NCBI GenBank assembly: GCA_038087875.1
Contig: CM075994.1
Location: 10,294,001 to 10,358,000, forward strand
Source of the DNA: Malacoraja senta
Taxonomy: Eukaryota
DNA: 64,000 bases
Reading direction: 5' to 3'
The translations under genes and the position numbers were made by a program. The stretch's first letter is position 1. The number at the start of each line of letters is the position of its first letter. This document shows positions 7,905 through 63,117 of this stretch, piece by piece. Under the pieces are notes generated by a model. The model was not told the DNA's origin. It saw nothing but the letters and a program-made list of their open reading frames with translations, and did no database searches.

Positions 7905-7986
7905 GGTCACGTGACCGCCCATATTCAGCAGCTCAACGTCAGTGAAAACACTTTGAACCAGGAAGTGGCCGATTTAAAATGGCTGC
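7905..7986 (+). promoter_or_regulatory. Putative proximal promoter motifs of TRIM copy 1 (E-box palindrome, CRE half-site, ETS, YY1)
   Basis: GGTCACGTGACC 7905-7916, ACGTCA ~7936, CAGGAAGTG 7959-7967, AAAATGGCTGC overlapping the ATG. The E-box recurs at 22119, 34215 and 46726. Function is inferred from motifs only. Confidence 0.5.
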
Positions 7987-10900
7987 GAAAGATAAGGTCG
8001 AGAGTTGGACCGAGGAGGTAGTTTGTCCCATCTGCCTGGATTTCTTCACCGATCCGGTTATACTAGAGTGTGGGCACAACTTCTGCCGCTCCTGCATCAC
8101 ACAGAGTTGGGACAGGGAGGCGAGAAACCCCTGCCCGGAATGTAGAGAGGAGTTTACAGACCGCAGCCTCAGGGTGAATCGGGCCTTGGTTAGACTGCCT
8201 GAGAAAGCTCGAGCACTGAGCCTGAATCTCAAAGAGAAGGAAAGTAAACTTCACTGCGAGAAACATCAGGAAGAACTGAAGCTGTTTTGTGAAACGGACA
8301 AGAAGCTGATCTGTGTGATTTGTGCAGCTGGGCGGGAACACAAGACTCACAGCTTCATGCTGATAGATGAAGCGATTGAATTCTACAAGGTAAAACAAAA
8401 TCAATTTTGATCACTTCATTCTAATCTTTTCTTTATTTTCTGATATTTTCATTTTCTGATCTGAAACCCAATCCCAGGAACAGGTGAAATTTTCTTTCGA
8501 ATCTCTCACAGAGAAGAAATCAGTGATCGAGAAAATGGAGCAGCAACAGAAAGAGAGCATTTCGGGAGTTCAGGTGAGGCTTTGTACTATCAATTTAATT
8601 ATTTTGTGTAGATTTGATCCCGATGATGCGTGTAATAAGTGGGCACCTCTATAGAGCTCAGTAGTCGAGGACCCGAGATCTTGGGAGCGGTTTGGCAAAC
8701 AAGGACTTTACTCACTGGAGCGCAGGAGTCTGAAGAATGATCTATTGCATGTGTATAATATGATGAAACAAAATGTTAGGGTGAATACTCCGTCTTTTAC
8801 CCTGAGAAGGGCGTCGAGCATGCGAGGGCATCGGTTTAAGGTGAGAAGCAACAGATTTAATACGAACATTAGGGGCACCTTTGGTAGTGGGTATATGGAA
8901 CGAGCTGCCTGGGGAGGTAGTTGATTCAGGTGCCATTACTATATTTAAAAGCTATTTGAACAAATTCGTGGAGAGAACATTTTAGAACTGTCTGGGCCAA
9001 ATGCGGAGAGGTGGAAATAGCGCGTCTTGGTCGGAATCTAGCACCCCTTGCTGTATGACTCTATGAAGTCTGTCATTCTAAGTGGTGCTGCTGTCTGCTA
9101 GTTCTGGTGACCTGGTTCTGTCCAGTGAGGGTTAATGGACACATGAAATGCAATAGGTTGCAGGGAATTGTTCTTGGGAAATGGAAATGTTGTGATTGTA
9201 CATTACTTTCACTAAATATTTCAGAATTAACAAGATGAGCTCTTGAATTGCTAAGGTAATGAAATCTTCGGATTAAATACATGTAAATGTGATTAGTGTA
9301 GGTAGCATGGTCATGTTGGGCTGAAAGGCATATTTCTGCGCTCCAGAACTCGTCATTAATTAGCAAAATGTCACCTTCCATGTCATGATGAAACACAGCA
9401 GAGTGACACAATATATTGATTCTCATCTTTCATCTGACAGGAAGAGTCACGCAACCTTCAGTCACAGACCACATCCCAGTTTGCTGAACTGCACCAGATT
9501 CTCACTGAGAAAGAGCAGCGCATACTCGGAGTTATCCGGGAAGATGAGGCGAAGATTGTAAAAACAATGGAGAAAAATCTTCAAGAGATTCAAGTGAATT
9601 TAAATTCCATTCAGGAGGAACTCTCAAAGTTACAGGAACAGATAGACCACAAGGACGGCGTGATATTTCTGAAGGTGAGGGGTTACACTGCAGCTTGGCG
9701 AAGTGAAAGTGCACAGTCACAAAATGGTAGATTAATTTTCTGAAATAAATGCTGCATTTACCAGTAATTCAGTACTGGGTCAATGATCCGTCTGTTCCAT
9801 CTACTCACCACATCCAACAATAATGCCCCAAAATTCCAGGTGTCCTTGTGTATTTATCCCACTTCAACTTAAATTTATCTGCAATATTGTCTTCAGGCCA
9901 ACTTGTGAGTTCCACGTTCTGTTTACTGCATTTCTTGTGAAAGTTATTAAAGGCCATCTTATATTTCAACTTTGATTTTAGGTCCCCCACATGTAGTGAT
10001 AATATTTCCAACCCCACCCATTTAAATCCGCCGCTGATCTAAAAATATTCCATCCCATTATCTCTGACCTTCTCCAGATAAAATCCCATGACCTGCCCGG
10101 TCTTACTCATAAGTTGCATACTCGCAATTATTTTCATCGACATTCCTAATGCTTTCCCCCGTGTTCGATGTCTCTACGACAATATCCACTTTCTGTCTGT
10201 GTGACAGCGGCAAAGAGTTGGGAAATGGGAATTATAAGAGGGTTTTTTCTAGCAATTTGGTGAAATACCCGCTGTCGGGATCATGACGATCCATCTCAGT
10301 CTATTGAGATTTGTGTTTTACTTATTTCAGGAGGAAGCTGGTCGCAAGAGGAGGTAGGACATGCTTTTGACTTAAACAATGTATGTTTTTATAGTACAGC
10401 TAAAAAAAAGAGCTAATGTTCAGTTTCTAACCAGCTGTTAAATATTTGCAGGGTGAGTGATGAAACCAAACCAATGTTGGTTGTAGATGGTGCGCTGCCC
10501 ATTGAAAAGTATGATCGGACTTTTTTCTACAACATGGCATTGAGAGAAACATCTGATATCATCAACCGAGGTAAAACTAATACCTTTTCCATTGTTCTTT
10601 TTTAAGACATGTTTATGCAAAACCTATATGTGAAGATTCATGTTATTAATGGACTCTGTGGAAGGCATCACAGAGACAAAGGGCGAAGTTTGTTTGCACT
10701 TCAACAAATCCTTGCTTCAGGGTGAATGTGTTTGCTGTGCTGGGTGAAATTGCGTAGACTAGGCCTCTGTAGTCAAGAGTTTGGGTGTAGTAGAGGAGAT
10801 CTTAGTGAAACACAAAGTCCTTACAGGGCTCAGTGGACTGGATGCACGGAGGATGTTTCGCCTGTCTAAGGGGTCTGGAGCCAGCGTACACACTCTCAGA

Positions 10901-12728
10901 ATGTGGGCTGGACCATTCAGGACAGAGACAAGGAGACATTACTGCATGCAGAGACCGGGGAAACTTTGGAATGCCCAGCACCGGTGGCTATGAATAATCA
11001 GTCATTCAGTGCTCTTGGAGCCAGAGAGCCATGGTTGTACATTACGGAGTCAGGCCCTTCGGCCCATCTCGTCCATGTCCACCTTTTTTCCCAGCCACAC
11101 TAATCCCATTTGCACACATTCGAACCGTATTATTCTACACCTCGTTTGCTAAATCGCAATTCCTCTTACACGGAGTGATTACATCTGATTCCACCACCTC
11201 CTCTGCCAAAATATTCCATGTATTAACAACTCTTTGTGAGAAGAAAACTGCGTCCTCCATTATTGATATACCTGCATGACAATAAGGTTTCGATGATCTT
11301 GCCTATATCCTGCTGCAGACTTTGACAGACTACCTTGCTATCCATAACATAAGCCGTTCTCCACAAACTTAGTAGTCACACCTCCTACATTCACATCCAA
11401 GCCATGAAAACATAAAATAAACAGCAAATGTTGCAGCACCGATCCCTGCTGCACACCACCAGTCACAGACCTCCAGGCAGCAAAATCATCCTTCTAGCGC
11501 TACCTTCTACCTCCAACCACCAAGCCAATTGTAGGTCCAATTTACCAACTCGTCTTGGATCCCACCTGCCTTCGCTTTCTGGACCAGCCTTACATGCCAA
11601 ACATTGTCAAGTCCCTCAGTGAAGTTCATATATTGCTTCACAATGAGATCAGAATGTTCTTGGTTGTACAGACGCATCAAACCCACCCTCCACTATAGAA
11701 AGCAAGTAAACAGTAGCAGATTGCCTCGCCCGTCCAGTCCACTCCCGTTCAGTGTCATCACGGCAACCCCACCCCACATTTCTACATCCACTTTAACCAC
11801 CTCTAGTTACCACTCACATCCCTCTCCTCCTCTTCCAATCTGCCCCTCCCTCGCCATCTACTGGCAAGATATTTAAATAGCAGCCTTATTTCTCCATCTG
11901 CACCCGCAATCTCTCGTTCATCCTCACTTTCCTCATTCGTTTTCCCCGTCCACACGCCTCGCCCCCTCCCGTTCCCGAGAACCCGCGGAATTTCCCCTCT
12001 CCTGCGATACTCAGGGAAAGATGTCTGTTGTCCATCCAATGTTGTTGCAGGTGAATCCTCGGGCAAGGTGTCAGTTTTCCGCCCGCCTGTGCCTGAGGCC
12101 GAGCGGCTTCTCCCCCCGACCCCCGGGGCCGCGCTGCCCGAGTCTCCCACACACCGACCCCCGGGGACTCTCTGATTCTCTGCTTCTCGCCCCAGTCTCC
12201 GTCACCCTGGATGTGGAAACGGCGCATCCGCTGCTCGAGGTGTCTGAGGATCGGAAGAGGGTGAGATGGACCCGGACTCGGAGGAGTCTCCCTGACACCG
12301 GGAAGAGGTTTACAAACAATCCGCGTGTGCTGGGATCGGAGGGATTCACATCGGGGAGACATTACTGGGAGGTGGAGGTGGCGGAGAATCGGGGCTGGAG
12401 GCTGGGAGTCGCCGCAGAGTCTGTGGAGAGGAAGGGATGGGTCACACTAACCCCGGAGACTGGAGCCTGGAGCATCACGCGGTGGGATGGCGAGTTTGAT
12501 GCATCCATCTTCCCTCCATCCCCTCTCCCCGCCCGTCCCATCCCCGGGAGGGTGGGAGTTTATCTGAGTTACGAGTCCGGGACAGTTTCATTTTGTAACG
12601 CGCACACCAAGTCCCATCTCCACACCTTCACTGGGAATAAATTCACGGAGAAACTTTATCCTTTGATCGGTACTGTGGATGAAAATCAATGGTTGATAAT
12701 CTGCTCCGGTTCCGCTCCGGCTGTGTAA
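7979..12728 (+). CDS. TRIM E3 ligase, RING-B-box2-CC-PRY/SPRY (TRIM39/TRIM69/A33/NF7-like), copy 1, 471 aa, intact
   Basis: Exons 7979-8389, 8478-8573, 9441-9674, 10331-10353, 10452-10570, 12196-12728, all GT-AG and in phase (1416 nt). C3HC4 RING (CPIC...CGHNFCRSC...CPEC), B-box (CEKH...C..D...CVIC...H..H), B30.2 motifs [19 protein letters not shown]. Confidence 0.93.
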
Positions 12729-21142: not shown

Positions 21143-21370
21143 CAAGGTGGCGCAGCGGTAGAGTTGCTGCCTTGCAGCGCTTGCAGCGCCAGAGATCCGG
21201 GTTCGAACGTTCTCCCCGAGACCGCGTGGGTTTTCTCCGAAATGCTCCTCCCACACTCCAAAGAAGTACAGGTATGTAGGTTAATTGGCTTGCTGGATGT
21301 GTAAAATTGTCCCTAGTGTCTGCAGGATAGAGTTAATATGCGGGGATCGCTGGTCGGTGGGGACTCGGTC
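21143..21370 (+). mobile_element. V-SINE, internally deleted
   Basis: A-box TGGCGCAGCGG, GGTTCGAAC and V-domain. Confidence 0.8.
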
Positions 21371-21804
21371 AGACAAATTGAACCTTTGTAAACTGCAATG
21401 AATGTTAGACGGCCATATAATATCCTTTAAACAATACACGCAAACATAGATTGCCCCGAAGACTGCTGCATGATAGACAGGTTGAGTATTAAAATATGGG
21501 CGGAGGGAGGTCTCCGTCCATCCTGATCCCGGGCTGTGAACGGAAATGCGGGCGGCGGGTTCCACTGCCCAACAGGTGCAACGTGTCCTCAGGTTACAAC
21601 CGAGACTTCCTTCGCGCCGGGCCCGGTTCCTTTCTGTCCTGCCTTAGTCTTTCTCGTCCATATTCAGGCCAGTTTAATGTCCAATCTACCCCTCCCTCGT
21701 GTGAGATGCGTTGGAAGCGGCCAGGACATCTCTCACACTGAACACTTGCAGCCAAATAGCATTAATTGCCCGGGACGGCAGCGACACGGTACTGAAGTGG
21801 TTGA

Positions 21805-22118
21805 GTTTAATTTAGTTGAGAGATACAGCGGGCAAACAGGCCCTTCGGCCCACCGGGTCCGCGCCGACCAGCGATCCCCGGACATTAACACTATCCTACA
21901 CCCACTTGCAACATTTTTTACATTTACCAAGCCTTTTTTTAAAACATTTACCAAAAATGGGAGTGTGGGGGGAACGGAAGATCTCGGAGAAAACCCACGC
22001 AGATCACGGGGAGAACGTACAAACTCCGTACAGACGGCACCCGGAGTCAGCATCGAACCAGGGTCTTTGGGACTGCATTCGCTGCAAGGCAGATACTCTA
22101 CCGCTGCGCCACCGTGAC
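21805..22118 (-). mobile_element. V-SINE, inverted, upstream of TRIM copy 2
   Basis: Paralog of 7586-7904. Confidence 0.85.
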
Positions 22119-22194
22119 GGTCACGTGACCATGACCATTTTCAGCAGCTTTACGTCAGTGAATATATTTTGAAACAGTAAGTGGAGAATTTAAA

Positions 22195-25100
22195 ATGGCT
22201 GCGAAAGACCAGGTCGAGAGTTGGACCGAGGAAGCAGTTTGTCCCATCTGCCTGGATTTCTTCACCAATGCGGTTATACTAGAGTGCGGCCACAACTTCT
22301 GCCGCTCCTGCATCACACAGAGTTGGGACAGGGAGGCGAGTAACTCCTGCCCGGAATGTAGAGAGGAGTTTGCGGACCGCACCCTCAGGGTGAATCGGGC
22401 CTTGGTTAGACTGGCTGAGAAAGCGCGAGCACTGAGCCTGAATCTCAAAGAGAAGGAAAGTGAACTTCACTGCGAGAAACATCAGGAAGAACTGAAGCTG
22501 TTTTGTGAAATGGACAAGAAGCTGATCTGTGTGATTTGTGCAGCTGGGCGGGAACACAAGTCTCACAGCTTCATGCTGATAGAAGAAGCAATTGAATTCT
22601 ACAAGGTAAAACCAAATCACTTTAGATCACATCATTGTGTAATCTTTTCTTTATTTTCTGATATTTTCATTCTCTGATCTGAAACCCAACCCCAGGAACA
22701 GGTGAAATCTTCTTTCGAAACTCTCACAGAAAAGAAATCAGAGATGCAGGAAATGGTAGAGAAACAGAAAGAGAGCATTTCGGGAGTACAGGTGAGGCTT
22801 TGTACTATCGATTTCATTATTTTGTGTAGATTTGATCCCGATGATGTGTGTAATAAGTGGGCACCTCTATAGAGCTCAGTAGTCGAGGACAAGAGATCTT
22901 GGGAGCGGTTGAGCAGCCAAGGACTTTACTCACTGGAGCGCAGGAGTCTGAAGAATGATCTATTGCAGGTGTATAATATCATGAAAAAAATGTTAGAGTG
23001 AAAACTCAGTCTATAACACTGAGTGGGGCCTCGAGCATGCGAGGGCATAGGTTTAAGGTAAGAGGGTGCAGATTTAACACAAACATTAAGGGCAACTTTG
23101 GTAGAGGGTATATGGAATGAGCTACATGGGGGAGGTAGTTGATTCAGATACCATAACAATATTTAAAAGATATTTAAACAAATTCGTGGAGAGAAAATTT
23201 TAGAACCAGTTGGGCCAAATGCAGACAGGTGGAAATAGCGCAGATGGGACGCCTTGGTCGGTATCTAGCACCCCTTGCAGAATTACTTTATGAAGTCTGT
23301 CATTCTAAGTGGTGCTGCTGTCTGCTAGTTCTGGTGACCTGGTTCTGTCCAGTGAGGGTTAATGGACACATGAAATGGAATAGGTTGCAGGGAATTGTAC
23401 TGGGGAAATGGGAATTATGTCATTGTATGTTATTTTCACAAAATATTTCAGAATTATCAAGACGAGCTCTTGAATTGCCACGGTAATGAAATCTTCAGAT
23501 TAAATACATGTAAATGTGATTCGTGTAGATAGCATGAACATGTTGGGCCGAAAGGCATATTTCTGCACTCCAGAACTCGACATTAATTAACAAAATGTCA
23601 CCTTCCGTGTAATGAGGAAACACAGCAGAGTGACACAATATATTGATTCTCATCTTTCATCTGATAGGAAGCGTCACGCAACCTTCAGTCACAGACCACA
23701 TTCCAGTTTGCTGAACTGCACCAGATTCTCACTGTGAAAGAGCAGCGCATACTCGGAGATATCCGGGAGGATGAGGCAAAGATTGTAAAAACAATGGAGA
23801 AAAATCTTCAAGTGATACAAAATAATTTAAATTTAATTCAGAAAGAACTCTCAAAGTTACAGGAACAGATAGACCACAAGGACAGCGTGATATTTCTGAA
23901 GGTGAGGGGTTACACTACCGTTTGGTGAAGTGAAAGTGCACAGTCACAAAATGGTGGGTTACATTTCAGAAATAAATGCTGCATTTACCAGCAATTCAGT
24001 ACTGGGTCAATGTACCGTCTGTTCCATTACTCACCACATCTGACTATAATGCCCCAAATTCCAGGAATCCTCATGTATTTATCCCATTTCAACTTCACTT
24101 TATCTGCAATATTGTCTTCAGGCCACCCTGTGAGTTCCACGTTCTGTTTACTGCATTTCTTGTGAAAGTTATTAAAGGCCATCTTATATTTCAGCTTTGA
24201 ATTTTTGTCTGCCCACACGTAGTGATAATATTTCCAACCCCCACCCATTTAAATCCGCCGCTGATCTTAAAATATTCCATCCCATTATCTCTGTCATCTC
24301 CAGATAAAATCCCACGACCTGCCCGGTCTTACTCGTAAGTTGCATACTCGCAGTTATTTTCATCGACATTCCTAATGCTTTCCCCCGTGTTCGATTTCTC
24401 TACGGCAATATCCACTTTCTGTCTGTGTGACTGCGGCAAAGATTTGGGAAATGGGAATTATCGGAGGTTTTTTTTGTAGCAATTTGGTGTAATACTCGCT
24501 GTCGGGATCATGACGATCCATCTCAGTCTATTGAGATTTGTGTTTTACTTATTTCAGGAGGAAGCTGGTCGCAAGAGGAGGTAGGACTTGCTTTTGACTG
24601 AAACAATGTATGTTTTTATAGTACAGCTAAAAAAAACAGCTAATGCTTAGTTTCTAACCAACTGTTAAATATTTGCAGGGTGAGTGATGAAACCAAACCA
24701 ATGTTCGTTGCAGATAGCATGCTGCCCATTGAAAAGTATGATCAGAATTTTTTCTACAACATGGCATTGAGAGAAACATCTGATATCATCAACCGAGGTA
24801 AAACTAATATCCTTTCCATTGTTCTTTTTTAAGACATTTTTATGCAATACTTATATGTGAAGATTAATGGACTCTGGGGAAAGTATCACAGAGACAGAGA
24901 GCGAAGTTTGTTTGCAGTTGAACAAATCCTTGCTCCTGGGAGAATGGGTTTGCTGTGCTGGGTGAAATTGCATAGACTAGGCCCGTGTAGTCGAGAGTTC
25001 AGGTGTGTTAGAGGAGATCTCAGTGAAACACAATGTCCTTACAGGGCATTACACCTTACACCTTATTCCACTACCTCCGCTGGCAAAAAATCCAGGTATC

Positions 25101-44297: not shown

Positions 44298-44325
44298 CTG
44301 ACGAAGGGTCTCGACCCGAAACGTC
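44298..44325 (+). ncRNA. Minimal type I hammerhead ribozyme core (Penelope-associated)
   Basis: CTGACGA-a-gggtc-tc-gaccc-GAAAC-GTC: full core, paired stem II, palindromic ACGT stem III. Stem I pairing is poor. Confidence 0.6.
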
Positions 44326-47305: not shown

Positions 47306-47994
47306 ACAATAAACTGATCTGTGTGATTTGTGCAGCTGGGCGGGAACACAAGTCTCACAGCTTCATGCTGATAGATGAAGCGATTGTATTCTACAAGGTA
47401 AAACCAAACCGATTTTGTTCACTTCATTGTTTAATATTGTCTTTTTTGTCTGACATTTTTATTCACTGATTTGAAACCCAACCCCAGGAACAGGTGAAAT
47501 CTTCTTTCGAATCTCTCTCAGATATGAAATCAGAGATCGAGCAAATGGAGCAGCTACAGAAAGAGGGCATTTCTGGAGTTCAGGTGATGCTTTGTATTAT
47601 TGATGTAATTATTTTGTGTAGGATTGATGCCTGTGATGCTTGTAATAAGTGGACAAATCTATAGAGCTCAGTAGTCGAGGACACGAGATCTTGGGAGCGG
47701 TTGGGCAGCCAAGGACTTTATTCACTGGAGCGCAGGAGTCTGAAGAATGATCTATTGCATGTGTATAATATCACGAAATAAAATGTTAGGGTGATTACTC
47801 AGTCTTTTTCCCTGAGTGGGGCGTCGAGCATGCGAGAGCATTGGATTAAGGTGAGAGGGAACTTTGGTAGTGGGTATATTGAACGAGCTGCCAGGGGAGG
47901 TAGTTGATTCAGGTACCATAACAATATTTAAAAGATATTTGAAGAAATTGGTGGATAGAAAATGCGCACAGGTGGAAATAGCGCAGATGGGGCA

Positions 47995-50280
47995 ATGGAC
48001 AACAGAAAATAGAAAAAAAGGTGCAGGAGTAAGCCATTCGGCACCGCTATTCAATGCGATCATGGCTGATCATCCCTAATCAGTACCCCGTTCCTGCCTT
48101 CTCCCCATATCCCCTGATTCCGCTAACATTTAGAGCCCTATCTAGCTCTCTCTTGAAAGTATCCAGAGAACCAGCCTCCACCAACCTCTGAGGCAGAGAA
48201 TTCCACAGACTCACAACACTCTGTGTGAAAAAGTGTTTCCTTATCTGCGTTCTAAATGGCTTACCCCTTATTCTTAAACTGTGGCCTCTTGTTCTGAACT
48301 TCCCCACCATCGAGAACATGTTTCCTGCCTCTACCGTGTCCAAACCCTTAATAATCTTATATGTTTCCATAAGATCCCCTCTCAACCTTCTCAATTCCAG
48401 AGTATACAAGCTCAGCCGCTCCATTCTCTCAGTATATGACAGTCCCGCCATCCCTGGAATTAACCTTGTAAACCTACACTGCACTCCCTCAATAGCAAGA
48501 ATGTCCTTCCTCTAATTAGGGGACAAAAACTGCAGGTGTGGTCTCACTAGGGCCCTGTACAACTGCAGAAGGACCTCTTTGTTCCTACACTCAACTCCTC
48601 TTGTTAGGAAGTCCAACACGCCATTCACTTTCTTCACTCCCTGCTGTACCTGCATGCTTGATTTCATTGACTGATGAACAAGCACCCCCAGATCCCGTTG
48701 TACTTCCCATTTGCCCAACTTGACACCATTTAGATAATAATCTGACCTCATATTTGTGCTACCAATGTTGATAACCTCACATTTATCCACATTAAACTAT
48801 ATCTGTCCACTCACCAACTTGTCCTAGTCACCCTGCATTCTCATAGCATCCTCCTCAGAGTTCCCACTGCCACCCAGCTTTGTATCATTTGCAAATTTGC
48901 TAATGTTACTTTGAATTCCTTCATTCAAATCATTGATGTATATTGTAAATACCTGCGGTCCCAGCGCTGAGCCTTGCGGTACCCCACTAGTCACTGCCTG
49001 CCATTCTGAAAGGGACCCGTTAATCCCGACTCTTTGTTTCCTGCCTGCCAACCACTTCTCTATCCATGTCAGCACTCTACCCCCAAAACATGTGCCCTAA
49101 TTTTGCCCATTAATCTATGTGGGACCTTATCAAATGCTTTCTGAAAGTTCAGGTACACTGGCTCTCCCTTATCAATTTTTGTAGTTACATCCTCAAAAAA
49201 TTCCAGAAGTTTAGTCAAGCATGATATCCCCTTCGTAAATCCATGCTGACTCGGACCGATCCTGTTACTGCTATCCAAATGTGCCGCTATTTCATCTTTT
49301 ATGATTGACACCAGCATCTTCCCCACCACCGATGTCAGGCTAACTGGTCTATAATTCCTTGTTTTCTCCCTCCCGCATTTATTTAATAGTGGGATAACAT
49401 TCGCTACCCTCCAATCCACAGGAACCGATCCTGAATCTATAGAACATTGGACAATGATCACCGATGCGTCCACGAATTCTAGAGCCAGTTCCTTAAATAC
49501 CCTGGGATGCAGACCATCAGGCCCTGGGGATTTATTAGCCTTCAGTCCGTTTAGTCGACCCAACACCATTTCCTGCCTAATGTGGATTTCGTTCAGTTCC
49601 TCCGTCACCCTAGATCCTCTGGCCACAAGTACATCAGGAAGTTTGTTTGTGTCCTCCTTAGTGAAGACGGATCCAAACTACCTTTTCAACTCATCTGCCA
49701 TTTCTTTGTTCCCTATAATAAATTCACCTTTTTCGGTCTTCAAGGGTCCTGCTTTGGTCTTAACTAATTTTTCCCACTTCACATACCTAAAGAAGCTTTT
49801 ACTATCCCCTTTTATATTCTTTTCTAGCTTACCTTCGTACCTCATCTTTTCTCCCCGTATTGCCTTTTTGGTATCTTCTGTTGCTCTTTAAACATTACCA
49901 AATCCTCTTGCATCCCGCTCGTTGTACTTCTCTTTTATTTTTATACCGTCCCTGACTTTCCTTGTCAGCCACGGTCGCCCGTTATTCCCCTTGGTATCTT
50001 TCTTCCTCTTTGCAATAAACTGATCCTGCACCTTCTGTATTATTCCCAGAAATACATGCCATTGTTATTCCAATGTTATCGCTGCTATGGTATCTAACCA
50101 ATCAACATTGGCTAGCTCCTCCCACATGTCTCCATAGTCCCCTTTGTTCAACTGTAACACTGACACGATTTACCCTTCTCCCTCTCAAATTGTAGATTAA
50201 AACTTACCATATTATAGTCATTACCTCCTAATGGCTTCTTAACCTCAAGTTCCCGTTATCAAATCCAGTTCATTACATAA
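47995..50280 (-). mobile_element. CR1-type LINE, degenerate, in intron 2 of copy 4
   Basis: RT fragments in ORFs 48080-49626 (SPGPDG, QHGFTKG, GVPQGS). Confidence 0.92.
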
Positions 50281-51754
50281 GGTCTAGTCGGTTACATTAC
50301 TTTCACCAGATATTTCAAAATTATCAAGACGAGCTCTTAAATTGCCAAGGTAATGATAGCTATGGATTACATACGGGTAAATGGAATTAGTGTAGATACG
50401 TACAGAGCTCAGCATGGACATGTTGGCAAGAATGGCCTATTTCTGCACTTCAGGACTCGAGATTCACTAGCAAAATGTCACCTTCCATGTCATAAGGAAA
50501 CACAGCAGTGGCATAATATATTGATTTTAATCTTTCATCTGTCAGGAAGAGTCACAAAACCTTCAGTCACTGGTCACATCCCAGTTTGCTGAACTGCAGC
50601 AGATATTCACTGAGAAAGAGCAGCGCTTACTTGGAGATATCCAGGAGGAAGAGAAAAATATTGTAAAAAGAATGAAGAAAAATCTTCAAGAGATTCAAGA
50701 GAATTTAAATTCCATTCAAGAGGAACTCTCAAAGTTACAGGAACTCATCGATCACAAGGACGGCGTGATATTTCTCAAGGTGAGGGGTTACACTACAGTT
50801 CGGTGAAGTGAAAGTGCACAGTCACAATATGGTGGGTTAAATTTCTGAAATGCTGCATTTACCAGTAATTCAGTACTGGGTCAATGTTCCGTCTGTTCCA
50901 TCTACTCACCACAATCGACAATAACGCCCTAAATTCCCCTCTCAACATAATGGACATTCGGCCCATCCACTGCTGTCAGTTTTCCTGCTCTGCACAAGCC
51001 TCTCCCCACCCACTCACAACATCTACCAGCAGTGCCCACAGTTGCCACATCTCTCGTGGTTATTCACCTATATCCACCTCCCCATGAAATTACCACTCCT
51101 GTGGTAGAGGGTTCTATATTATCTTGACTGAATCACTAGTGGAACTTGAAAGAACACCTGATATTTCTTCTTCAATTCACTTTCTTATCATTATCTTATA
51201 TTTCAATGTTTAATCTTGCACTAAATGTTGTACCCTTTATCCTTTATCTCTACACTGTGGATGGCTTGTTTTTATTCATGTACAGCCTTTTATTTGACAG
51301 GATAGCATGTAACCAAAGGCTTTTCACCGTACCTCAGTACACGTGACTATAATAAGTTCAGAAGTTCAGAAGAGATAGGTATAGAATTTGCCCATCAAGT
51401 CTACTCCGCCATTCAATCGTGGCTGATCTACCTGTCCTAATCACATTCTCTGCCTTCTCCCCATACCCCTGACACCCGTACAAATCAAGATAATATTAAA
51501 TTCCGTTTATTTTCCTTTAATTAGCCATAAAACCTCATGAAGTGCGCAGTCTTTCCGGTAAGTTTGATCCTCAGATCAATGGCAGATTGTTCACTATCAC
51601 TCCTTACACATTCCCCGTTAGTTCTTTGTTCATTCGTGTAATACCCTCAATCCGTGTCAGCAGTGGGTCAGAGTTGGGAAATGGGAATTTTCAGCTGCTC
51701 CTAAAGTTCTATGTAATTGTAACGGTTGTGATATGAACCACGAGTAACAATAAA

Positions 51755-52330
51755 TTCTGAAAAAAAGATCAAGTGCTGGAGCAACTCAGCGGGTTAGGCA
51801 ACATCTGTGGGGGATTTGGATGGGTGACGTTTTCGGTCGGGACCCTTCTTCAGATTGTTGTTGTGAGGGGTGGGGAGCTGGAAAAGCGATGTAGTTCGAC
51901 AAAGCCTCATGACAGGCAAAGGATACAGGCGAGAGAGGTCTGCCTGGCAGTTGGATGGACATCGGCTAGAGATGAAAAGAGTAGAAAAGGGGCCAGATAA
52001 AAAAAGAAGAGAGATATGTTAAGCCAGATGGAAGATTAGAGGAGTAAACAAACTGAGGGGATGTGAAAAAGAGCGCGTTGGTGCGGAAAGTGGAAGCTCA
52101 TTAGGCTGGGCACATGGAAGAAATAGGGTAATGCGGAGAGAGATGGAGTTACCTACAATTGGAGATTTCAATGTTCATTCTGCTGTGTTGTAAACTACCC
52201 GAGCGGAATATGAGGTGCCGATCCTCCATTTTGCGTGTGACCTCACTCTGTCAATGGAGGAGGCCTTGGACTGGAAGGACAATATGGAAATGAGAAGTGG
52301 AGTTGGAATGTTGTGCAACCGGGATGTTCC
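51755..52330 (-). mobile_element. Penelope-like element 3' remnant (end of GIY-YIG, 3' UTR, hammerhead-like motif)
   Basis: Reverse strand encodes ..RKMEDRHLIFRSGSLQHSRMNIEISN and contains CTGAAGAagggtcccgaccGAAAACGTC at ~51826-51853. Confidence 0.7.
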
Positions 52331-53139
52331 GCAGATCTGGGTCGCTTAGTCTACGCTTGGTCTCGACGATGTACAGGAGGGGGCCGAACCGAAGCATCAC
52401 CAATCCACATCCTCGTGAAATGCTGCCTGCTACGCCGTGTTCCAGCATTTTGTGTCTTATATTACACGGCATTTTGCATTTCTTGTAACTCACTGAATTG
52501 AGCTTTGTGTTTTATTTATTTCAGGATGAAGCTGGTCGGGAGAGCAGGTAGGACATGCTCTTGACTGAAACACTGTGTGGATGTGTAATATAACAAAAAT
52601 TACATGCTCAATTTATCACCATGTGTTTACTATTTGCAGTGCGAGTGTTGATACTGAATCGTTCTCAGTGACAGATGCTGCCCCGGCCTTTGAATCGTTC
52701 TATCACCCCTTTGTGTTTAGCACAATGATAAGAGAAATATCTGATGCCATTAAGAGGAGTAGCTTACAAACTGATGGTATGAATATAGAATACTCTCAAT
52801 TTTATCAACAAACGTAATCTTCCCCACCCCCTCCCCCCCCCCCCCCCCCGCCCACACACACACACACCTTCTACCCCCACACGCACACCTTCTACCCCCC
52901 ACACGCCCACACACACACACACCTTCTCCCTTCTTCCCCACTACCCACCATCTTTTCCTTGTACCTACCCTGGACTCCCCTCCAGCGCAACCTCCACAGA
53001 TATCTCTTCCTCTGGCTTCACGATTCTCACCCCATCTATCCTTATCTCGCACCTTTTCTCATTTCATCTCTGGCATTAATCCAACAATTGGCCTATCAAA
53101 ACAATCCCCTCGCTGGTGTCCGCCTCTCACTGGCGTTGG

Positions 53140-54105: not shown

Positions 54106-54621
54106 AGGCCTGTCTCACGAATCTGCGGTCATTGGCGGCGAAACGGGAAGAATCTGCCGCCATAGACCGCGCACTCGTGAGAAAGAACAATTCCCGGGCC
54201 GTGCGACGGTGTTCCCAACACCGCGCGGTGCAAAAATAAAATCGACAATGTCGAAAACACTATACTCACCGCACAACCTCCACCAGTGATGCACAAGTGC
54301 GCACGGCCGCTCGCACGGCCCGCCGCCAGTATGGCTCGAGCGCCGTGCGTCAAGCCTCCACTGCCACAGCCTCCGCCAGTGAGGCACGTGCCGCCGCCAG
54401 TGACGCACGTGTGCTGCACGGCCGCAGGCACAGCCACCGCTGCAGCACCGCGATCTGGACAGCTGCCGCCACAGCCCATCAGATTCAAAATGACATCATC
54501 GCAGTCGGCCCGCCCTTTTACTTTGCTGTTCACGTCCAAACCACGCGAGATCTGAGACTTCAACAGTGTAGCATTTTTACCGCGTTTTTCAAACGGAGTA
54601 TTTTGACAGTTGACTAGCAAC

Positions 54622-56401
54622 ATGAGGAGAACAAGGAGTGTGAAGAGATCGCTGCAGGATAAAGTACAGAATATTAGTATGGGTGCTAATAAAATTCAGG
54701 TGCTGGAGGGTCCAGCCACTGGCCCTGCCCCTGCCCCTGCCCCTGCCCCTGTCCCTGCTTCATTACCTGTCCCATCTCCTGCCCCATCTCCTGCCTCAAC
54801 TGCTTCCACATCTGCTGCCCCATCTGCTTCTCCATCTGCTGGTCCATGTCCTACTCCAGCTTATGTCCCTGCATGGGTGTGGAACAGGTCTGGCTCACAG
54901 CCATATAATTTTTCCCGAGAGCAAGAGGGGGACCTGGTGGAATGGTATCAGTCCCACCATGAGCTGTACGATAAGACCAACCGTGATTTTAGGAACAGGG
55001 GTCTCCGTAACCTCATAATTGGAGAAAAGGCGAAGGAGTTCCCTGACTGCTCTTGTAAGTACATATCTTTCAGTTTATCTACATTTCTGTGTTTGTAATT
55101 GAAGTTCAAATTCATATTATAATTTGCTCAACACTTATCTTCATTTATGCTATCTTTTCACAGATGACCAACTGTGCCAATGGCTAAAGAGTCGGAGGAC
55201 ACGGTTCGGCAAAATATCACAAGGTCTTGGCAAGTCTGGCTCTGGCAGTAGGAAACTGACTGACAGAGACCAGTGGATATATGACAAATGGGGGTTCGTC
55301 CGGGACCACATTGTAAGAGTGCACACGAAGGAAAGTTGCAGGAAGGTGAGTAACTCAGAAAATTATGTGACAATAAATATTAGTTGGGAAGTCAGTACAA
55401 AACATTTTTAACAATGATAACTTGTTCACTTTCCCTGCTACGTCCGGATGGCCTTGCACATGTATGATACGCATTCACTTTCTTCTAGTGTACTGTGGGT
55501 GCATCAACGTGCGCGGACTCGAGTGAGGGTGAGCCTGATCCGCTAGAAGGACCTTCACATGGACCATCCGGGTCATGCACTGCGGTAGAACTGCAGCAGC
55601 ATGCAAGACGGAAGCGGGTCAGCACAACTGCGTCAGATAGCGAGGTGCCTGTCCAAACTCTGCAACGGGACATGTTCAGGGATGTAAGTGCTTTTGGATT
55701 ACCCATCATCAAATCTCTTTCACTCCGCCCTACTTCCACGTTTCTCCATCTCATCCCACAATATAATTATCATGATTGTACTCTCTTGTTGCAGATCATG
55801 GAACAGGCAAAGACAACGTCGGGCATGATCACCTCTTTCTCACAGCCAAGGACGTCCCATGAGAGAGTTGTGCATGCATATGCAATGTTCCTCAGGGAGG
55901 AGATGTTCTTAATCCCTGAGGAAAATTGGCAACGTTACAGCATGGAGGGATTGTCCTTGGCAAGGGCGCACAGACTTCCGCAGCCAGTAAAATATTTAAA
56001 TCAAAGTTCATTGAAATTAAAAAAGTTTTAATTTAATGCCGTCTATGATTCATTTACTATGGTTTTCTTTGTGTTGCAGAGTCCGATAAGGCATATGCCA
56101 TTAGTGCCACTGCAACAAACGAGGATGCCACCACAATATCCCCACCAGGTACACTGTGAAACATTTTTGAGTCTTCAGCCTGACTCATGATTTTCTCTAA
56201 CACACAGCTTGTGAAAGGTTGTGATTTGTTTTATATGATTTGTTTGGCACCGATACATATTGATACGCTTATGTGTTTTGCCCACAGGCAAGGATGGAAT
56301 ACCGTCCTGTGACATACCCTTGGATGGCAGCCCCCCCCCCCACTATGTCAGTGGACACACCCCACCGCAACATAGTTCATCACGTGGCATGGATAGGCTA
56401 G
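54622..56401 (+). CDS. Harbinger Myb/SANT-like (MADF) DNA-binding protein, spliced
   Basis: Predicted exons 54622-55054, 55164-55345, 55489-55683, 55795-55986, 56080-56148, 56288-56401 (GT-AG, in phase). MADF-like LVEWYQSHHELYDK...WLKSRRTRFGK...KSGSG...WIYDKWGF. The last exon's stop depends on the C11 run (alternative stop at 56484). Confidence 0.78.
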
Positions 56402-57089
56402 GGGAAGGCGGATTCCATGTACAATTTGAGGTTCCCGAAGATGGCACAAACTCCAGCACCGAAGACGCAGACTTATATAATTAATAAGAATGACATGTGC
56501 CGTAGGAGTGACGTTGCCCCCAAAATTCACTGTTGTGCCTGCTTGTGTGTTGCACATTACCGTTCAATTCACTGTTTTCTCACGACGTTATTTGTTTGCT
56601 TTCACTAATGAACAATGTTCTGTTGAATTGTGTTGCATATTTAAAAAGAATTGCTTGTTTTTCAATATGTTAATTGTTTCCAGTAAATAAACAGTTTAAA
56701 TTTAATATAGTATTGTGGAAAAAAGTGTCTGTTAATCGCGGCGTAGATCTCATATGGAAACAACCTGAAATGATGGAATGCATCTCACATACAAAATCAT
56801 TGATTTATTAGAGAAATAAAACACAAACAGGCATAGAATAGCATTGAATTACAAAAAAATTTCATTATAAGCCATGAAAATAATACAATGGCATTTAAGC
56901 CCTTTCAAGATCAGGCAACTTTAAAATAGGTGATGTAGGTGGTACTATTAACACAGATTCAATAATTTCGCTATGTAAAACCATCCATCAACATACATAG
57001 ATCGCACTTTTGTAAGATCTGGGGCCTTCATGATCGGGTACCTCTGCCGTGAAAACACAACCCTGACATCCCCTGTTTGCTTTTGATCC

Positions 57090-58378
57090 TCAAAACACAT
57101 TGTCCTGCCAGGGTACACTGCCTCGCTCTGAGTTGTAGTACGCACAGAGATGGTCCCTCATCTCCTTTGCTCTTCTGTTGCTGGTGTTTCCTTGCAATGA
57201 CCCTAGTGCCATCATCGGTCTTGCAGCTCTCCATGAACCTGGTGTGACTTCACCTGTCTGTTTGTCCATCGTGTCACCCTCCACCAAGGCTGCAGACGCA
57301 CCTCTGGTGCGGATCAGGTTATGGAGGACACATGCCGCATAGACAATGGCCTGCACATTCTCGGGCTCCTGCTCCATTGTTGTAAGCAGGCATCTGAATC
57401 TGCTAGCAAGGATACCAAAAGCATTCTCCACTACCCTCCTAGCCCTGGACAGCCTGTAATTGAAGATCCTTTGCTCCCTTGACACCCCCCTGTGAGGGTA
57501 TGGCTTCATCATCCATGGCCTGAGTGCAAAGGCATCATCACCAACCAGTGCGTAGGGGATGTCAGGGTTGTCTTCTCCAGGCAGAGGTTCTGGATCCGGA
57601 AGGCCTGCTCTCCCTTCTTCCAATGCTTGCCCAAGGGAGGTCTCTCTCCAGATCCCTCCATCTGCGGCACTGCCAGGTGTGCCCACATTCACAAACATGA
57701 AGTTGTAGTTTGCATCTACCACAGCTAACAGCACGATGGAATGGAACTTCTTGTAGTTAAAGTACACAGAACCTCCCCCGGGTGGACACCGGATGGCCAC
57801 ATGCTTCCCGTCAACAGCCCACATGTGTGCAGGAAGTTCCATCTGCTTTGAAAGCCGTGCGCCACACTCCTCCACCCGTCTGGTGTAGTTGGGCAGTCAA
57901 TAAGCTCATCATATGTTTTGTTGATGGCATCACACGTGTCTCGGACTACACCGCTGATGGTGTTGTGAGCCACACGGAAGTTATACGACAGGCTCTTGTA
58001 GAAATCCCCTGATGCAAGGTAGCGGAGGGTGATGGCTAGGCGCAGGCCTGGTTCTAGTGACTTCCGCATGACGGTGTCCATTTTCTGCAGTAGAGGTCCG
58101 ACTCGTGTCTTGAGCTCCTGAAACAGGTCAGGCGGGATCCTGGTGAAATTTCTAAAGGCAGCATCATCTACCCGCTGCAGATCCGTCATCATGGTCTCAT
58201 ACTGGCCCAAAGTAGGTCTCATCAGGAACAAAGGCCTCATCCACACAGACCTCTTCCTGGGCTTCTTCTTCATAACCTTCTTTGTTGAACTGCTGCACGG
58301 ATGACCTGCAACCATGATGGCTGCTGCTAGGAGAAGATTATGTTGGTGTAGCAGCAATGCAATGTCAATGTCTTCCAT
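57090..58378 (-). CDS. Harbinger DDE transposase (HARBI1-like, DDE_Tnp_4) with a single 1-bp frameshift
   Basis: N-part FRNFTRI...LAITLRYLASG...HNTIS; C-part AVDGKH, YFNYKKFHSIVL, GDDAF, FNYRLSRARRVVENAFGIL. The frame break is at ccc 57818-57820 (one G missing from HTCGAVDG). Confidence 0.9.
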
Positions 58379-58671
58379 TGTGCAGTAGTTTACAGGTCCT
58401 AATCGAGTTTGCTGCAAGATTAAGAGAGAATAAGTGTGAATATTCCGAAAAATTTTACGTGTCGAGAGTTGACAGGTCTTTGTGGGCCAAAGGACCTGTT
58501 CCTGTGTTATACTGTTCTATGTTCATGGTCTCTCTAAGAAAATGGTTCTCAGATTTACAAACTCCATGCAGACAACCACGAGTGACCACTGATTTATTTT
58601 TGTATATACATCATCCTATTGTTATTACTAACTTTGTTATTGCTGGTCTACAATTGTTAGACCCTAACCCC

Positions 58672-59400
58672 CTTTATAAAATTGACTTTTATAAAACACA
58701 TTTCTATAACACATGTTGTTTTAAGAACAAAAAATAGCCAGCGACTTCTGTTTACCTGAAATAAAGATGGCGTCAGGCTCGAGCTTTCCAGACTCTGCTC
58801 CAAATGGCGTCAGGCTCGAGCTTGACTCCTCTCAAAATGGACGTCCCCCTCCCTCCTTCCCTCCAAATATGCTTATTTCCTTAAGAATGTAAACATGTTC
58901 TACTCAACTGATGAAGTAAAGATCTTTTGGGCAATTCTAAAGCTAACTATAAGGCCTGTCTCACGAGTCTGTGGTCATTTATAAAATAGACTTTTATAAA
59001 ACTCATTCCTTTACTTTTTGTTTACCTGAAATTAAGATGGCGTCAGGCTCGAGCTTTCCATACTCTGCTCCAAATGGCGTCAGGCTCGAGCTTGACTCCT
59101 CTCAAAATGGACGTCCCCCTCCCTCCTTCCCTCCAAATATGCTTATTTTCTTAAGAGTGGAAACATGTTCTACTCAACTGATGAAATAAAGATCTTTTGG
59201 GCAATTCTAAAGCTAACTATAAGGCCTGTCTCACGAGTCTGTGGTCATTTATAAAATAGACTTTTATAAAACACATTCCTTTACTTTTTGTTTACCTGAA
59301 ATAAAGATGGCGTCAGGCTCGAGATTTCCAGACTCTGCTCCAAATCGCGTCAGGCTCGAGCTTGAAAAAAAAATGGACGTTCCCCTCCCTCCGTCCCTCC
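58672..59400 (+). repeat. 270-bp tandem repeat (~2.6 copies) inside the Harbinger, with internal copies of the left TIR
   Basis: aggcctgtctcacgagtctgtggtcatt at 58952 and 59222; repeated aagatggcgtcaggctcgag. Confidence 0.88.
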
Positions 59401-59836
59401 CGTCAAAGTCCGGGATCGCATGCTCGTTCGACAGGCCGTGCGATGATCACCCGACGTACGTGCAACAAAAGCTTCTGGTAAATCAACATTTTTTTTAACC
59501 TACCGCAAGCACGTGGGACCCGCCCTATTTGATTCACTCGGCCCCCGCGCAGCATCCGCGCGATGCTCCGGTGGATAGGCTCGACGCTCTCGCCGTTGCC
59601 GCGCGGTCCTCGCTACCGTCTACACCGCGCTTCACCGCCGATGACCGCAAACAGGTAAGACACGGCCTTAACTCAAGCATTTTGTGTCAACCTTTGAAAC
59701 AAAATTTATCCATGTTCTGCAAAGATGCTGACTGAGCCTCTGTTAATAACTTCAGAACATTCTGTCTCTTTAGTAAACTAGCATCTGCAATTCATTCTGT
59801 TAAATAAAACGGACATAGATTTATTTCTCCTCATTT

Positions 59837-61700: not shown

Positions 61701-61989
61701 ATCAGACACATCTGAGTAACATGTAGATGCAGAGCTTGTGGGTAATTATGGGCTGAGGGGGAATTGTCGTTTTATTCCAGTAGCGAATGCAGCTGCCGGG
61801 AAGGTTCACTTTCACACTGTCAGCTGGAGATGGGAGATCCCTGAACACAACCGGCAGGCACACCCCTCCCTCTGTCTCACCCGCCTCTCAAGAAAACAGG
61901 AGCACGTCACCTGGCCCCTCATGTCTGCCCTCGTTCAGTATAATCAAAGCAACTCCATCACAACTCAACCTCCTCTTTAACCACTTCTA

Positions 61990-62790
61990 GAGTCAGTTAT
62001 TAAAGATGGGATAGCAGCACATTTGGAAAGTGGTGAAATCATTGGACCAAGTCAGCATGGATTTACGAAAGGTAAATCATGTCTGACGAATCTTATAGAA
62101 TTTTTCGAGGATGTAACTAGTAGAGTGGATAAGGGAGAACCAGTGGATGTGTTATATCTAGAATTTCAGAAGGCTTTCGACAAGGTCCCACATAAGAGAT
62201 TAGTATACAAACTTAAAGCACACGGTATTGGGGGTTCAGTATTGATGTGGATAGAGAACTGGCTGGCAGACAGGAAGCAAAGCATAGGAGTAAATGGGTC
62301 CTTTTCAGAAAGGCAGGCAGTGACTAGTGGGGTACCGCAAGGCTCAGAGCTGGGACCCCAGCTATTTACATTATATATTAATGACCTGGATGAGGGAATT
62401 GAATGTAACATCTCCAAGTTTGCAGATGACACAAACCTGGGGGGCAGTGTTAGATGTGAGGTGGATGCTAGGAGGAAGACCAGGACAAGGGGTCACAGTT
62501 TAAGGATAAAGGGGAAATCCTTTGGGACCGAGATGAGAAAAACATTTTTCACACAGAGAGTGGTGAATCTCTGGAACTATCTGCCACAGAAGGTAGTTGA
62601 GGCCAGTTCATTGGCTATATTTAAGAGGGAGTTAGATGTGGGCCTTGTGGCTAAAGGGATCAGGAGGTATGGAGAGAAGGCAGGTACAGGATACTGAGGG
62701 ATGCTCAGCCATGATCATATTGAATGGCGGTGCAGGCTCGAAGGGCCGAATTGCCTGCTCCTGCACCTATTTTCTATGTTTCTATGTTTC
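61990..62790 (+). mobile_element. CR1-type LINE, 5'-truncated and internally deleted, inside copy 4 intron 5
   Basis: ORF 62023-62697 jumps from EVDARR to [12 protein letters not shown] intron-5-like sequence lies on both sides. Confidence 0.9.
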
Positions 62791-62887
62791 TAATTACCAT
62801 TCGCATCAATCTCCTCTTCCAACAATCTCCCGCCACCCCCCCCCCTCCCACCACCACCATTCGGTCCTTCGAGCCAGCACCGCCATT

Positions 62888-63117
62888 CTCACAGCGTCAT
62901 ACCGATAGAAGAAGCTGTTGAAATCTACAAGGTAAAAGCAAACCGATATTGATCATATCATTGTGTCATGTTTTGTTTATTTTCTAACATTTATCTTCTC
63001 TGATCTGAAACCCAACTCCAGGATCAGGTGAAATCTTCTTTCGAATCTCTCACAAAAAAGGAATCAGAGATCGAGAAAATAGAGCAGCAACAGAAAGAGA
63101 GCATTTCAGGAGTTCAG
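62888..63117 (+). pseudogene. TRIM copy 5 fragment: end of exon 1 plus exon 2; continues beyond window
   Basis: ..HSVIPIEEAVEIYK|gtaaaa ending at 62931; 96-bp exon 63022-63117 ([32 protein letters not shown]). RING and most of the B-box are absent. Confidence 0.85.

Follow-up and report, generated by a model that had tools for sequence, protein, structure and literature searches.

The window, by which we mean the whole 64,000-nucleotide stretch analyzed here, holds five TRIM copies homologous to one another, each a gene start or a remnant (c1–c5) and all on the + strand, and repeats that span kilobases at 85–98% identity, far above chance. LINEs are dense across the locus. Features are listed below in window positions.

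7979..12728, + strand: copy c1, an intact six-exon TRIM gene encoding 471 aa (RING, B-box, coiled coil, B30.2)
7979-8389, 8478-8573, 9441-9674, 10331-10353, 10452-10570, 12196-12728, + strand: exons of c1
21370..33400, + strand: repeat unit of c2 (gene and spacer), homologous to the c3 unit at 33405-45880
22195..26592, + strand: copy c2, an intact six-exon TRIM gene encoding 470 aa
22195-22605, 22696-22791, 23668-23901, 24558-24580, 24679-24797, 26063-26592, + strand: exons of c2
26117..26392, + strand: hypervariable patch in the B30.2 exon of c2
34291..38990, + strand: copy c3, a young pseudogene, frameshifted with all six exons present
46802..52776, + strand: copy c4, a broken chimera lacking a B30.2 exon
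47137..47305, no strand assigned: 169-nt hairpin repeat inserted into c4 exon 1
54107..59669, no strand assigned: near full-length PIF/Harbinger DNA transposon within c4 intron 5
61889..62842, + strand: remnant of c4 intron 5, in two parts (61889-61990 and 62789-62842)
62845..62887, no strand assigned: deletion junction with a ~30-nt repeat scrap at the joint
62887..63117, + strand: remnant of copy c5

Copies c1–c3 share exons of 411/96/234/23/119/530–533 nt with canonical GT/AG splice sites, and the reading frames of c1 and c2 are open throughout. In c3, a 5-nt deletion after 34294 (codon 2), just past the ATG, causes a frameshift; the remaining frame and the splice sites are intact, and the next in-frame ATG lies at 34664. 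In a search of sequencing runs, none reached half of the query words, and no RNA run was listed among those containing them. In four runs aligned at 88% likeness the signal was dominated by repeats and paralogues, and the c3 deletion was neither confirmed nor excluded. One contig, from a run guessed to be RNA, ended at the exon 1 end, which is a weak hint at best.

The fourth copy is more heavily damaged. Its exon 1 (46802-47397; 95–97% identity to c1–c3) is interrupted by the hairpin repeat, which we take to be Penelope-like; the insertion is flanked by a perfect 16-nt target-site duplication (47121-47136 / 47306-47321) and introduces an in-frame stop. Exons 2–4 (47488-47583, 50546-50779, 52525-52547) are followed by a 137-nt exon 5 (52640-52776) that derives from another subfamily (56–59%). 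The transposon in intron 5, which itself lies within a repeat, has imperfect ~30-bp TIRs and a TAA target duplication; its DDE_Tnp_4 transposase is encoded on the - strand with one frameshift, and a Pfam scan of its second ORF gave no match at E 0.001. The frameshift and the position within an intronic repeat rule out a domesticated Harbinger of the harbiTRIM kind. Further downstream, a LINE fragment (61983-62792) splits the intron 5 remnant, and the deletion at ~62845-62887 removed the c4 B30.2 exon, the spacer, the c5 promoter, the c5 RING and most of the c5 B-box. What the window holds of c5 is the last ~45 nt of exon 1, up to 62931, and exon 2 (63022-63117), the remainder of the copy lying beyond the window.

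A preliminary description of this DNA had proposed five tandem copies with the same exon sizes, two of them intact and three broken by different mechanisms. The five starts or remnants are indeed in place, but by tblastn a B30.2 exon is found within the window in only three of them (c1–c3), that of c5 being off-window, and the common exon sizes hold for c1–c3 and fail for c4, with its foreign exon 5, c5 offering too little sequence within the window for a comparison. The division into two open copies (c1, c2) and three broken ones (c3 frameshifted, c4 and c5 partial) was correct. The three lesion types, namely a 5-nt deletion, a TE insertion and a large deletion, all exist; they are not, however, distributed one per gene, since c4 carries two lesions (insertion and B30.2 loss) and a single deletion truncates both c4 and c5.

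Comparison of the c2 and c3 units revealed a two-tier divergence, with 3.3–4.4% difference in the 5' gene part and 1.4–1.9% in the 3' part (intron 5 and spacer), and each unit carries its own indels of 185–342 bp. The hypervariable patch differs at 23 of 276 nt (8.3%) against 1.4–1.9% in its adjoining flanks, a baseline picked after the profile was seen; the whole B30.2 exon (4.9%) is unremarkable against the 5' non-coding part (3.3–4.4%), and in one intergenic segment the count per 276 nt rises to 17. The low divergence of the 3' halves and spacers (1.7% over 5.4 kb) is what would be expected if c2 and c3 were alleles that the assembler had set side by side, but the more diverged 5' halves, the patch and the unit-specific indels all speak against this, and we consider it very improbable. 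Even if c2 and c3 were to collapse into one, the array would survive, because the other three copies are far more diverged. The graded divergence of the copies, their independent lesions and the chimeric c4 support the birth-and-death turnover suggested earlier, which would proceed through unequal crossing-over, gene conversion, TE insertion and deletion.

In a Pfam scan, RING, B-box, PRY and SPRY exceeded the curated cut-offs. The N-terminal C3HC4 RING scored 53 bits in c1 (PF15227, cut-off 30) and keeps eight of eight ligands in c1–c3; the B-box forms a single stretch (PF00643, 38.3 bits, cut-off 24.1); and a C-terminal PRY-SPRY is present in c1–c3 only. Exon 3 alone matched the coiled coil PF25600 with E 4e-6 at 27.2 bits, slightly below the cut-off of 30; its position and the exon sizes suit a coiled coil. 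By sequence, these are class IV TRIM genes with a single B-box (RING, Bbox2, probable coiled coil, B30.2) and a predicted E3 ligase role. The structure model of the B30.2 domain superposes best on TRIM21 PRYSPRY (TM 0.94, rmsd 1.1–1.2 Å), and TRIM21 is also the best PDB sequence match of the RING-B-box (E 3e-28). Among solved structures, the B30.2 exon finds its closest sequence matches in butyrophilins (BTNs). B30.2 identity to TRIM21 and TRIM5alpha is ~40%, and the likeness does not imply Fc or capsid binding.

The cartilaginous-fish origin proposed earlier can be narrowed to skate, as 86 of the best 120 matches come from Rhinoraja or Leucoraja. At least 75 Rhinoraja and at least 28 Leucoraja B30.2 domains occur among the matches listed; a skate genome carries dozens of such genes, and the window covers part of a large class IV TRIM cluster of skates that is duplicating and decaying. 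In the RBCC tree, c1–c3 cluster with three Leucoraja proteins (support 96) and all skate RBCC regions sampled fall into a single clade (99), with no subfamily predating the skate-stingray split among the sampled proteins. One-to-one orthology, named in the preliminary description among the outcomes that would speak against turnover, was not seen: the window copies cluster with one another and not with single genes of other skates. Skate RefSeq models named 'zinc-binding protein A33-like', 'nuclear factor 7-like' or 'TRIM39-like' (P0049, P0086, P0110, Leucoraja) belong to the same family at 78–84% full-length identity. The names are automatic, no one-to-one orthologue was present among the sampled proteins, and NCBI '-like' names are a poor guide to orthology (PMC10445537); the Atlas neighbours of P0049 include A33-like, NF7-like and TRIM35 clusters. 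In the literature searched we found no dedicated study of these models and none of the TRIM repertoire of cartilaginous fishes; the available parts of the whale shark paper and of the main text of PMC10751288 contain nothing on TRIM genes and no mention of TRIM or BTN, respectively.

Membership of the finTRIMs, a family cited for comparison in the preliminary description, was rejected. The available part of the finTRIM report (PMC2657112) describes clustered, diversified RBCC-B30.2 genes whose coiled-coil exons are likewise 96 and 234 nt, but with two B-boxes, an RBB exon of 555–594 nt and middle exons of 154 and 60 nt, against one B-box, a 411-nt exon 1 and middle exons of 23 and 119 nt here.

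Differences between B30.2 domains cluster at sites that are hypervariable family-wide: ~15 sites vary, the same ones across species, and 104 are nearly fixed. Site concentration and the flank test were significant. B30.2 dN/dS was 1.5–1.7, with no comparison significant alone (p=0.10–0.18), against 0.9–1.0 for the whole gene and <1 for RING/B-box. Site-concentrated divergence fits the earlier suggestion of target recognition through B30.2, by a predicted variable face, but dN/dS>1 falls short of significance by itself. Some of the B30.2 change is decay, c3 being a pseudogene and c1 having changed at invariant sites (seven near-invariant B30.2 positions carry replacements, e.g. Y428C, D429N).

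These values bear on an alternative view, in which repeat-driven duplication and drift in an unstable region would yield mostly redundant copies of genes with a non-immune ancestral role, either nuclear or developmental, as for A33/XNF7-like proteins, or erythropoietic, as for bloodthirsty-like ones. Such a view would accommodate the three broken copies out of five, the rare replacements at conserved sites (8 in c1 and 13 in c2, skate median 6), the whole-gene dN/dS and the A33- or NF7-like NCBI names. Drift would not, however, make changes in different species pile up at the same 15 sites with 104 nearly fixed, nor does it suit dN/dS <1 in RING/B-box, and we regard this view as quite unlikely.

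The most distinctive feature, absent from the preliminary description, is that B30.2 is shared with butyrophilins. In public relatives, B30.2 domains cluster by lineage and not by gene type, with skate TRIM and skate BTN domains in one clade (99/97). A clade of all BTN B30.2 domains was rejected by the AU test (p=0.00045, 41 rows), as was a batoid-BTN clade (34 rows); BTN ectodomains, in contrast, form one batoid clade with support 100. Seven of eight skate BTN B30.2 domains have a median identity of 81–87% to skate TRIM B30.2s and of 71–77% to those of stingray BTNs, and four diagnostic sites follow lineage and none follows class. TRIM and BTN models come from contigs of matching length in each of seven batoid species, which suggests that they lie on shared contigs. 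The lineage grouping of B30.2 together with the single ectodomain clade therefore points to exchange, and B30.2 appears to have been traded between TRIMs and butyrophilins separately in skates and stingrays. BTN monophyly was rejected neither for skates alone (p=0.38) nor for stingrays alone (p=0.18), and one transfer per lineage is therefore enough; these tests did not demonstrate repeated exchange inside one lineage. Among TRIM paralogues, B30.2 and RBCC distances gave Mantel r of 0.01–0.07, and in 20 proteins picked by RING-B-box r was 0.24–0.33 (p 0.02–0.11); complete decoupling of the two was dropped after controlling for hit selection.

The BTN sequences come from automatic gene prediction, with some fused models (P0013, P0031, P0043), and predictors could have joined Ig-TM exons to the B30.2 exon of a neighbouring TRIM. 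Fused models are common in the cluster, and the same error has been reported for zebrafish B30.2 exons, as the available part of 10.1101/027151 records. Yet, of 57 BTNs newly found through their ectodomain, 40 have a B30.2 domain, full-length BTNs place it at ~residue 280–300 in skates, sawfish, stingrays and sharks, and every skate BTN B30.2 differs from all sampled TRIMs (top identity 77–92%), so that an annotation artefact seems improbable.

Precedents for B30.2 exchange are provided by squamate harbiTRIMs and zebrafish NLR-B30.2 genes. According to the accessible text of PMC12262214, harbiTRIMs lie in tandem, with butyrophilins and further PRY-SPRY genes next to them, and show gains and losses, PRY-SPRY recombination and a Harbinger element nearby; they differ in their demonstrated antiviral function, 0–5 paralogues and intact, transcribed Harbinger, whereas the skate array has dozens of members and a frameshifted Harbinger inserted in a broken copy. 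In zebrafish, the B30.2 exon is converted between otherwise divergent NLR groups under diversifying selection, but within NLR genes, most NLR B30.2s being nearer each other than TRIMs (10.1101/027151, part available); the skate exchange would span architectures that are unrelated, one a cytosolic E3 ligase and the other a membrane Ig receptor. Teleost btr (TRIM39-like) and trim35/hltr genes likewise make up multigene sets of class IV TRIMs that recombine and have hypervariable B30.2 loops, but represent a separate expansion in which positive selection was established by PAML (PMC3137616, part available).

TRIM21 and TRIM5 bind a target, cluster their RINGs and ubiquitylate. Like them, each skate protein would dimerise via its coiled coil, the variable B30.2 face would bind a multimeric cytosolic target, and RING clustering would ubiquitylate it. 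As a single exon, B30.2 would act as a cassette: exchange across the cluster, linked butyrophilin genes included, would homogenise its framework while ~15 positions diversify. The genes are probably immune sensors and pathogens most likely the selecting agent; if one kind had to be named it would be viruses, a guess about as apt to be right as wrong, and a putative antiviral role is plausible.

Cartilaginous fishes possess interferons. Within 1.5 kb upstream of the four ATGs (c1–c4) we found no strict ISRE, and the promoter scan showed no NF-kB site upstream of these copies; isolated GAS-like 9-mers number 13 in the whole window. BTN3A1 binds phosphoantigens. The same genomic mechanism could serve non-viral targets such as retroelement particles, bacterial products, small metabolites or host proteins, in keeping with the negative ISRE scan, the LINE-dense locus, the B30.2 domain common to TRIMs and BTNs, the butyrophilins among solved structures, and the action on LINE-1 reported for TRIM5alpha in the available part of PMC10169663. 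Many hypervariable sites, however, would suit a changing protein target more than one fixed metabolite, zebrafish btr genes include ISGs (10.1101/693333), and a reptile harbiTRIM targets flavivirus capsid (PMC12262214, part available); we judge non-viral targets unlikely, though worth keeping in mind. Taken as a whole, a turning-over class IV TRIM cluster whose B30.2 cassette is exchanged with butyrophilins under pathogen selection is the explanation we favour, and probably the right one.

What is new here, as sequences of public relatives indicate, is B30.2 sharing across TRIMs and butyrophilins. It warns that orthology calls based on B30.2 mislead in this group of fishes, and the skate TRIM family supplies candidates ready for restriction-factor screens. 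The lineage-wise sharing suggests that the fusion that created butyrophilins did not stop exchange with TRIMs. In these fishes, butyrophilins may have a variable recognition module as their intracellular sensor domain, a point that matters for what they sensed ancestrally. More tentatively, and with more doubt than confidence, cartilaginous fishes may keep a pathogen-selected pool of B30.2 exons repeatedly exchanged between TRIM ligases and membrane butyrophilins. If so, a new B30.2 specificity could feed both intracellular degradation and butyrophilin signalling to T cells, in a germline recognition repertoire joining cell-intrinsic and T-cell immunity.

Self-comparison of the window revealed tandem units 12–14 kb long and 85–98% identical, with five copies or remnants of a TRIM gene (c1–c5).

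TRIM copies and remnants in the window
7979–12728, + strand: c1, six GT/AG-bounded coding exons, open frame of 471 aa
22195–26592, + strand: c2, six GT/AG-bounded coding exons, open frame of 470 aa
34291–38990, + strand: c3, every exon present, 5 nt missing after the ATG
46802–52776, + strand: c4, hairpin insertion in exon 1, no B30.2 exon by tblastn
62887–63117, + strand: c5, remnant within the window, later exons past the window end

The exons of c1 and c2 measure 411/96/234/23/119/533 or 530 nt, and the spliced frames are open. RING, a single B-box, PRY and SPRY were matched above the curated Pfam cut-offs, and the coiled coil slightly below its own. The B30.2 (PRY-SPRY) exon of c2 gave an AlphaFold model with a pLDDT of 92, which aligns with the B30.2 domains of TRIM21 and BTN3A1 at TM values of 0.93–0.94. 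The preliminary description of a birth-and-death array of TRIM-B30.2 genes holds for the five remnants, and requires amendment in that tblastn located three B30.2 exons in the window, not five, and in that c4 bears two lesions. The array is real and of a familiar kind; in related skates, such genes are already on record as gene models without a name.

A promoter scan found no strict ISRE within 1.5 kb upstream of c1–c4. In a SINE copy upstream of c1 (approximately 7748–7766), private changes generate a near-ISRE/GAS-like string, below strict patterns, that is missing from the corresponding SINE ahead of c2. An AT-rich stretch at 1308–5107 (− strand) holds mostly unbroken LINE ORF2 fragments with endonuclease and reverse transcriptase, of a family other than that of the CR1-type copies seen at other positions.

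In c3, over 34291–34696, the single lesion leaves a shifted frame with a stop after 53 codons, located ahead of the sole later in-frame ATG of exon 1, at 34664. Judging from the sequence, initiation there could yield a coiled-coil-B30.2 product lacking RING and B-box, a possible dominant negative. In c4, exon 1 is interrupted by a 169-nt hairpin (47137–47305; inverted arm of 120 nt) with a 16-nt target-site duplication; this family of short repeats with long internal hairpins, which we take to be Penelope-like, is found at numerous positions along the window (17637–17749, 28185–28386 and 40520–40721, among others). Intron 5 of c4 holds a Harbinger element and two LINE fragments, beyond which it can be traced as far as 61889–61990; it resumes on the other side of an inserted LINE, at 62789–62842, and the exon 1 tail of c5 starts approximately 45 nt past this end. 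Since the two remnants adjoin, we conclude that one deletion across both copies took the c4 B30.2 exon, the spacer, and the c5 promoter, RING and most of the B-box. In the resulting order, exon 5 of c4 precedes exon 2 of c5, with phases of 1 versus 0, and a direct splice would therefore be out of frame. The PIF/Harbinger element (54107–59669) is near full-length; it has TIRs and is flanked by a TAA target duplication. Its transposase is a single frameshift (near 57880) short of intact, and the element also holds a multi-exon second ORF on the opposite strand and a 270-bp tandem repeat (2.4 copies) near its right end; it is probably a young insertion.

A protein search with the c2 B30.2 exon returned 1335 proteins at E<=1e-30. 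Among the best 120, 116 were chondrichthyan and 86 came from the skates Rhinoraja and Leucoraja, including single-gene models 78–86% identical to the query and named 'A33-like', 'nuclear factor 7-like' or 'TRIM39-like'; the RING-B-box exon retrieved the same family. These matches make it very likely that the host is itself a skate. In a tree of the RING-B-box-coiled coil part (RBCC; 51 rows), the 29 skate rows formed one clade (support 99) as opposed to the stingray and sawfish rows. Within it, c2 and c3 paired (99) and c1–c3 clustered with three Leucoraja proteins with no one-to-one pairing. Among the matches listed, this pattern fits a skate-specific expansion with turnover. Membership of the finTRIMs was rejected on gene anatomy, as far as passages of the finTRIM description (PMC2657112) present it. 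In the literature outside subscription journals, we found no description of an elasmobranch TRIM expansion of this kind.

Recombination is apparent within the window. Identity of c4 to c1–c3 falls from 95–97% in exon 1 to 85–89% in exon 3 and 56–59% in exon 5, and its exons 4–5 are 79–87% identical to another skate subfamily versus 34–36% to c1–c3; c4 is therefore a mosaic. Divergence between c2 and c3 is 3.3–4.4% from the promoter to mid-intron 5, versus 1.4–1.9% in late intron 5 and onward through the spacer. This suggests that a tract containing the B30.2 exon was exchanged more recently.

The top matches of the c2 B30.2 also include skate butyrophilins (BTNs; Ig-Ig-TM-B30.2 proteins). To guard against selection bias, BTNs were searched by ectodomain only, giving 62 matches, of which 57 were new and 40 had a usable B30.2; all TRIM and BTN relatives compared are automatic gene models. 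Seven of eight skate BTN B30.2s showed median identities of 81–87% to skate TRIM B30.2s versus 71–77% to stingray BTN B30.2s (73% and 69% for the eighth), and each of the 18 stingray BTN B30.2s had a closer best match among stingray TRIMs (80–89%) than among skate BTNs (73–79%). In a balanced B30.2 tree, with skate TRIMs chosen through the RING-B-box search, three doubtful rows removed ahead of sampling, two long-branch rows of 43 dropped and just one shark TRIM included, skate TRIMs, skate BTNs and the window copies fell on one side (99/97), and an all-BTN clade was rejected (p-AU 0.00045). Because of the single shark TRIM, a batoid-only tree was also run, and the BTN clade was again rejected, with a log-likelihood 107 lower. 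At four B30.2 sites, skate and stingray differ in TRIMs and BTNs alike, and no site divides the two gene types in both lineages. By ectodomain, these BTNs group as one batoid clade (100), subdivided into skates and stingrays. Identity between two Rhinoraja BTNs is 97% outside B30.2 versus 86% inside. TRIM and BTN models come from contigs of matching length in each of seven batoid species, implying linkage. BTN monophyly was not rejected inside skates (p=0.38) or inside stingrays (p=0.18), so that, as a minimum reading of these sequences, a single TRIM-BTN B30.2 exchange in each of these two lineages would suffice. The window holds no BTN gene, and this result applies to the family rather than to c1–c5.

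Over the full set of TRIM paralogues, distances in B30.2 and in RBCC showed no correlation; in 20 proteins picked without B30.2, the two were weakly correlated. Two carpet-shark BTNs have sister ectodomains (76%) and B30.2s just 49% identical; the shark gene-model pairs P0158/P0162 and P0147/P0127, with ectodomains 75–76% alike and B30.2 types 49–55%, suggest that domain swaps may have occurred in sharks also. In a second, deeper BTN lineage (P0013, first domain, versus P0031, P0038 and P0041), B30.2 identity to c2 is 73% for the skate member P0013 and 46–53% for sawfish and carpet-shark members, and the ectodomain tree does not show direct orthology.

The nearest precedent, in the passages available of PMC12262214, is a reptile locus of TRIMs and butyrophilins with recombination among PRY-SPRY domains. 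Extracts of other sources describe B30.2 conversion spanning NLR groups (10.1101/027151), ISGs among some btr genes (10.1101/693333) and butyrophilin as a domain fusion of gnathostomes (PMC11788884). No report of TRIM-BTN B30.2 exchange in cartilaginous fish was found in the literature outside subscription journals.

Nei-Gojobori dN/dS between window copies was 0.39–0.89 for RING/B-box, 0.41–0.61 for the coiled coil and 1.54–1.66 for B30.2, the three B30.2 values each falling short of significance alone (p=0.10, 0.10 and 0.18). Inside the c2-c3 low-divergence tract, the 5' half of the B30.2 exon differs at 23/276 nt, a level approached by one intergenic window (17/276). Nonsynonymous changes in this exon exceed the flanks (21/396 versus 100/5918, p=1.6e-5, with a flank baseline picked after the profile was seen), and synonymous changes (4–5/132) show no clear excess (p=0.08–0.29). 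In 70 full-length skate TRIMs, variability over 176 B30.2 sites is bimodal, with 104 near-invariant and 15 hypervariable; differences of the window copies fall on 13, 14 and 6 of the latter. On the c2 model, nine of these lie in loops and six in strands, mostly at strand ends, and by analogy with known B30.2 structures they would make one predicted binding face. On the other side, both c3 and c1 are also altered at otherwise invariant sites, suggesting a degree of decay. We regard diversifying selection on B30.2 as likely.

TRIM21 and TRIM5 form coiled-coil dimers that display two B30.2 domains, and engagement of a repetitive target brings the RINGs together and leads to ubiquitylation. By analogy, the c1 and c2 proteins may work in the same manner; new copies would arise by duplication, B30.2 variants would be spread and recombined by exchange, and copies would be lost through TEs and deletions. 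We regard this model as a whole, with pathogen pressure as the likely driver, as reasonably probable, and give viruses specifically roughly even chances of being that driver. What is new beyond an otherwise familiar array is the putative exchange of B30.2 across gene families.
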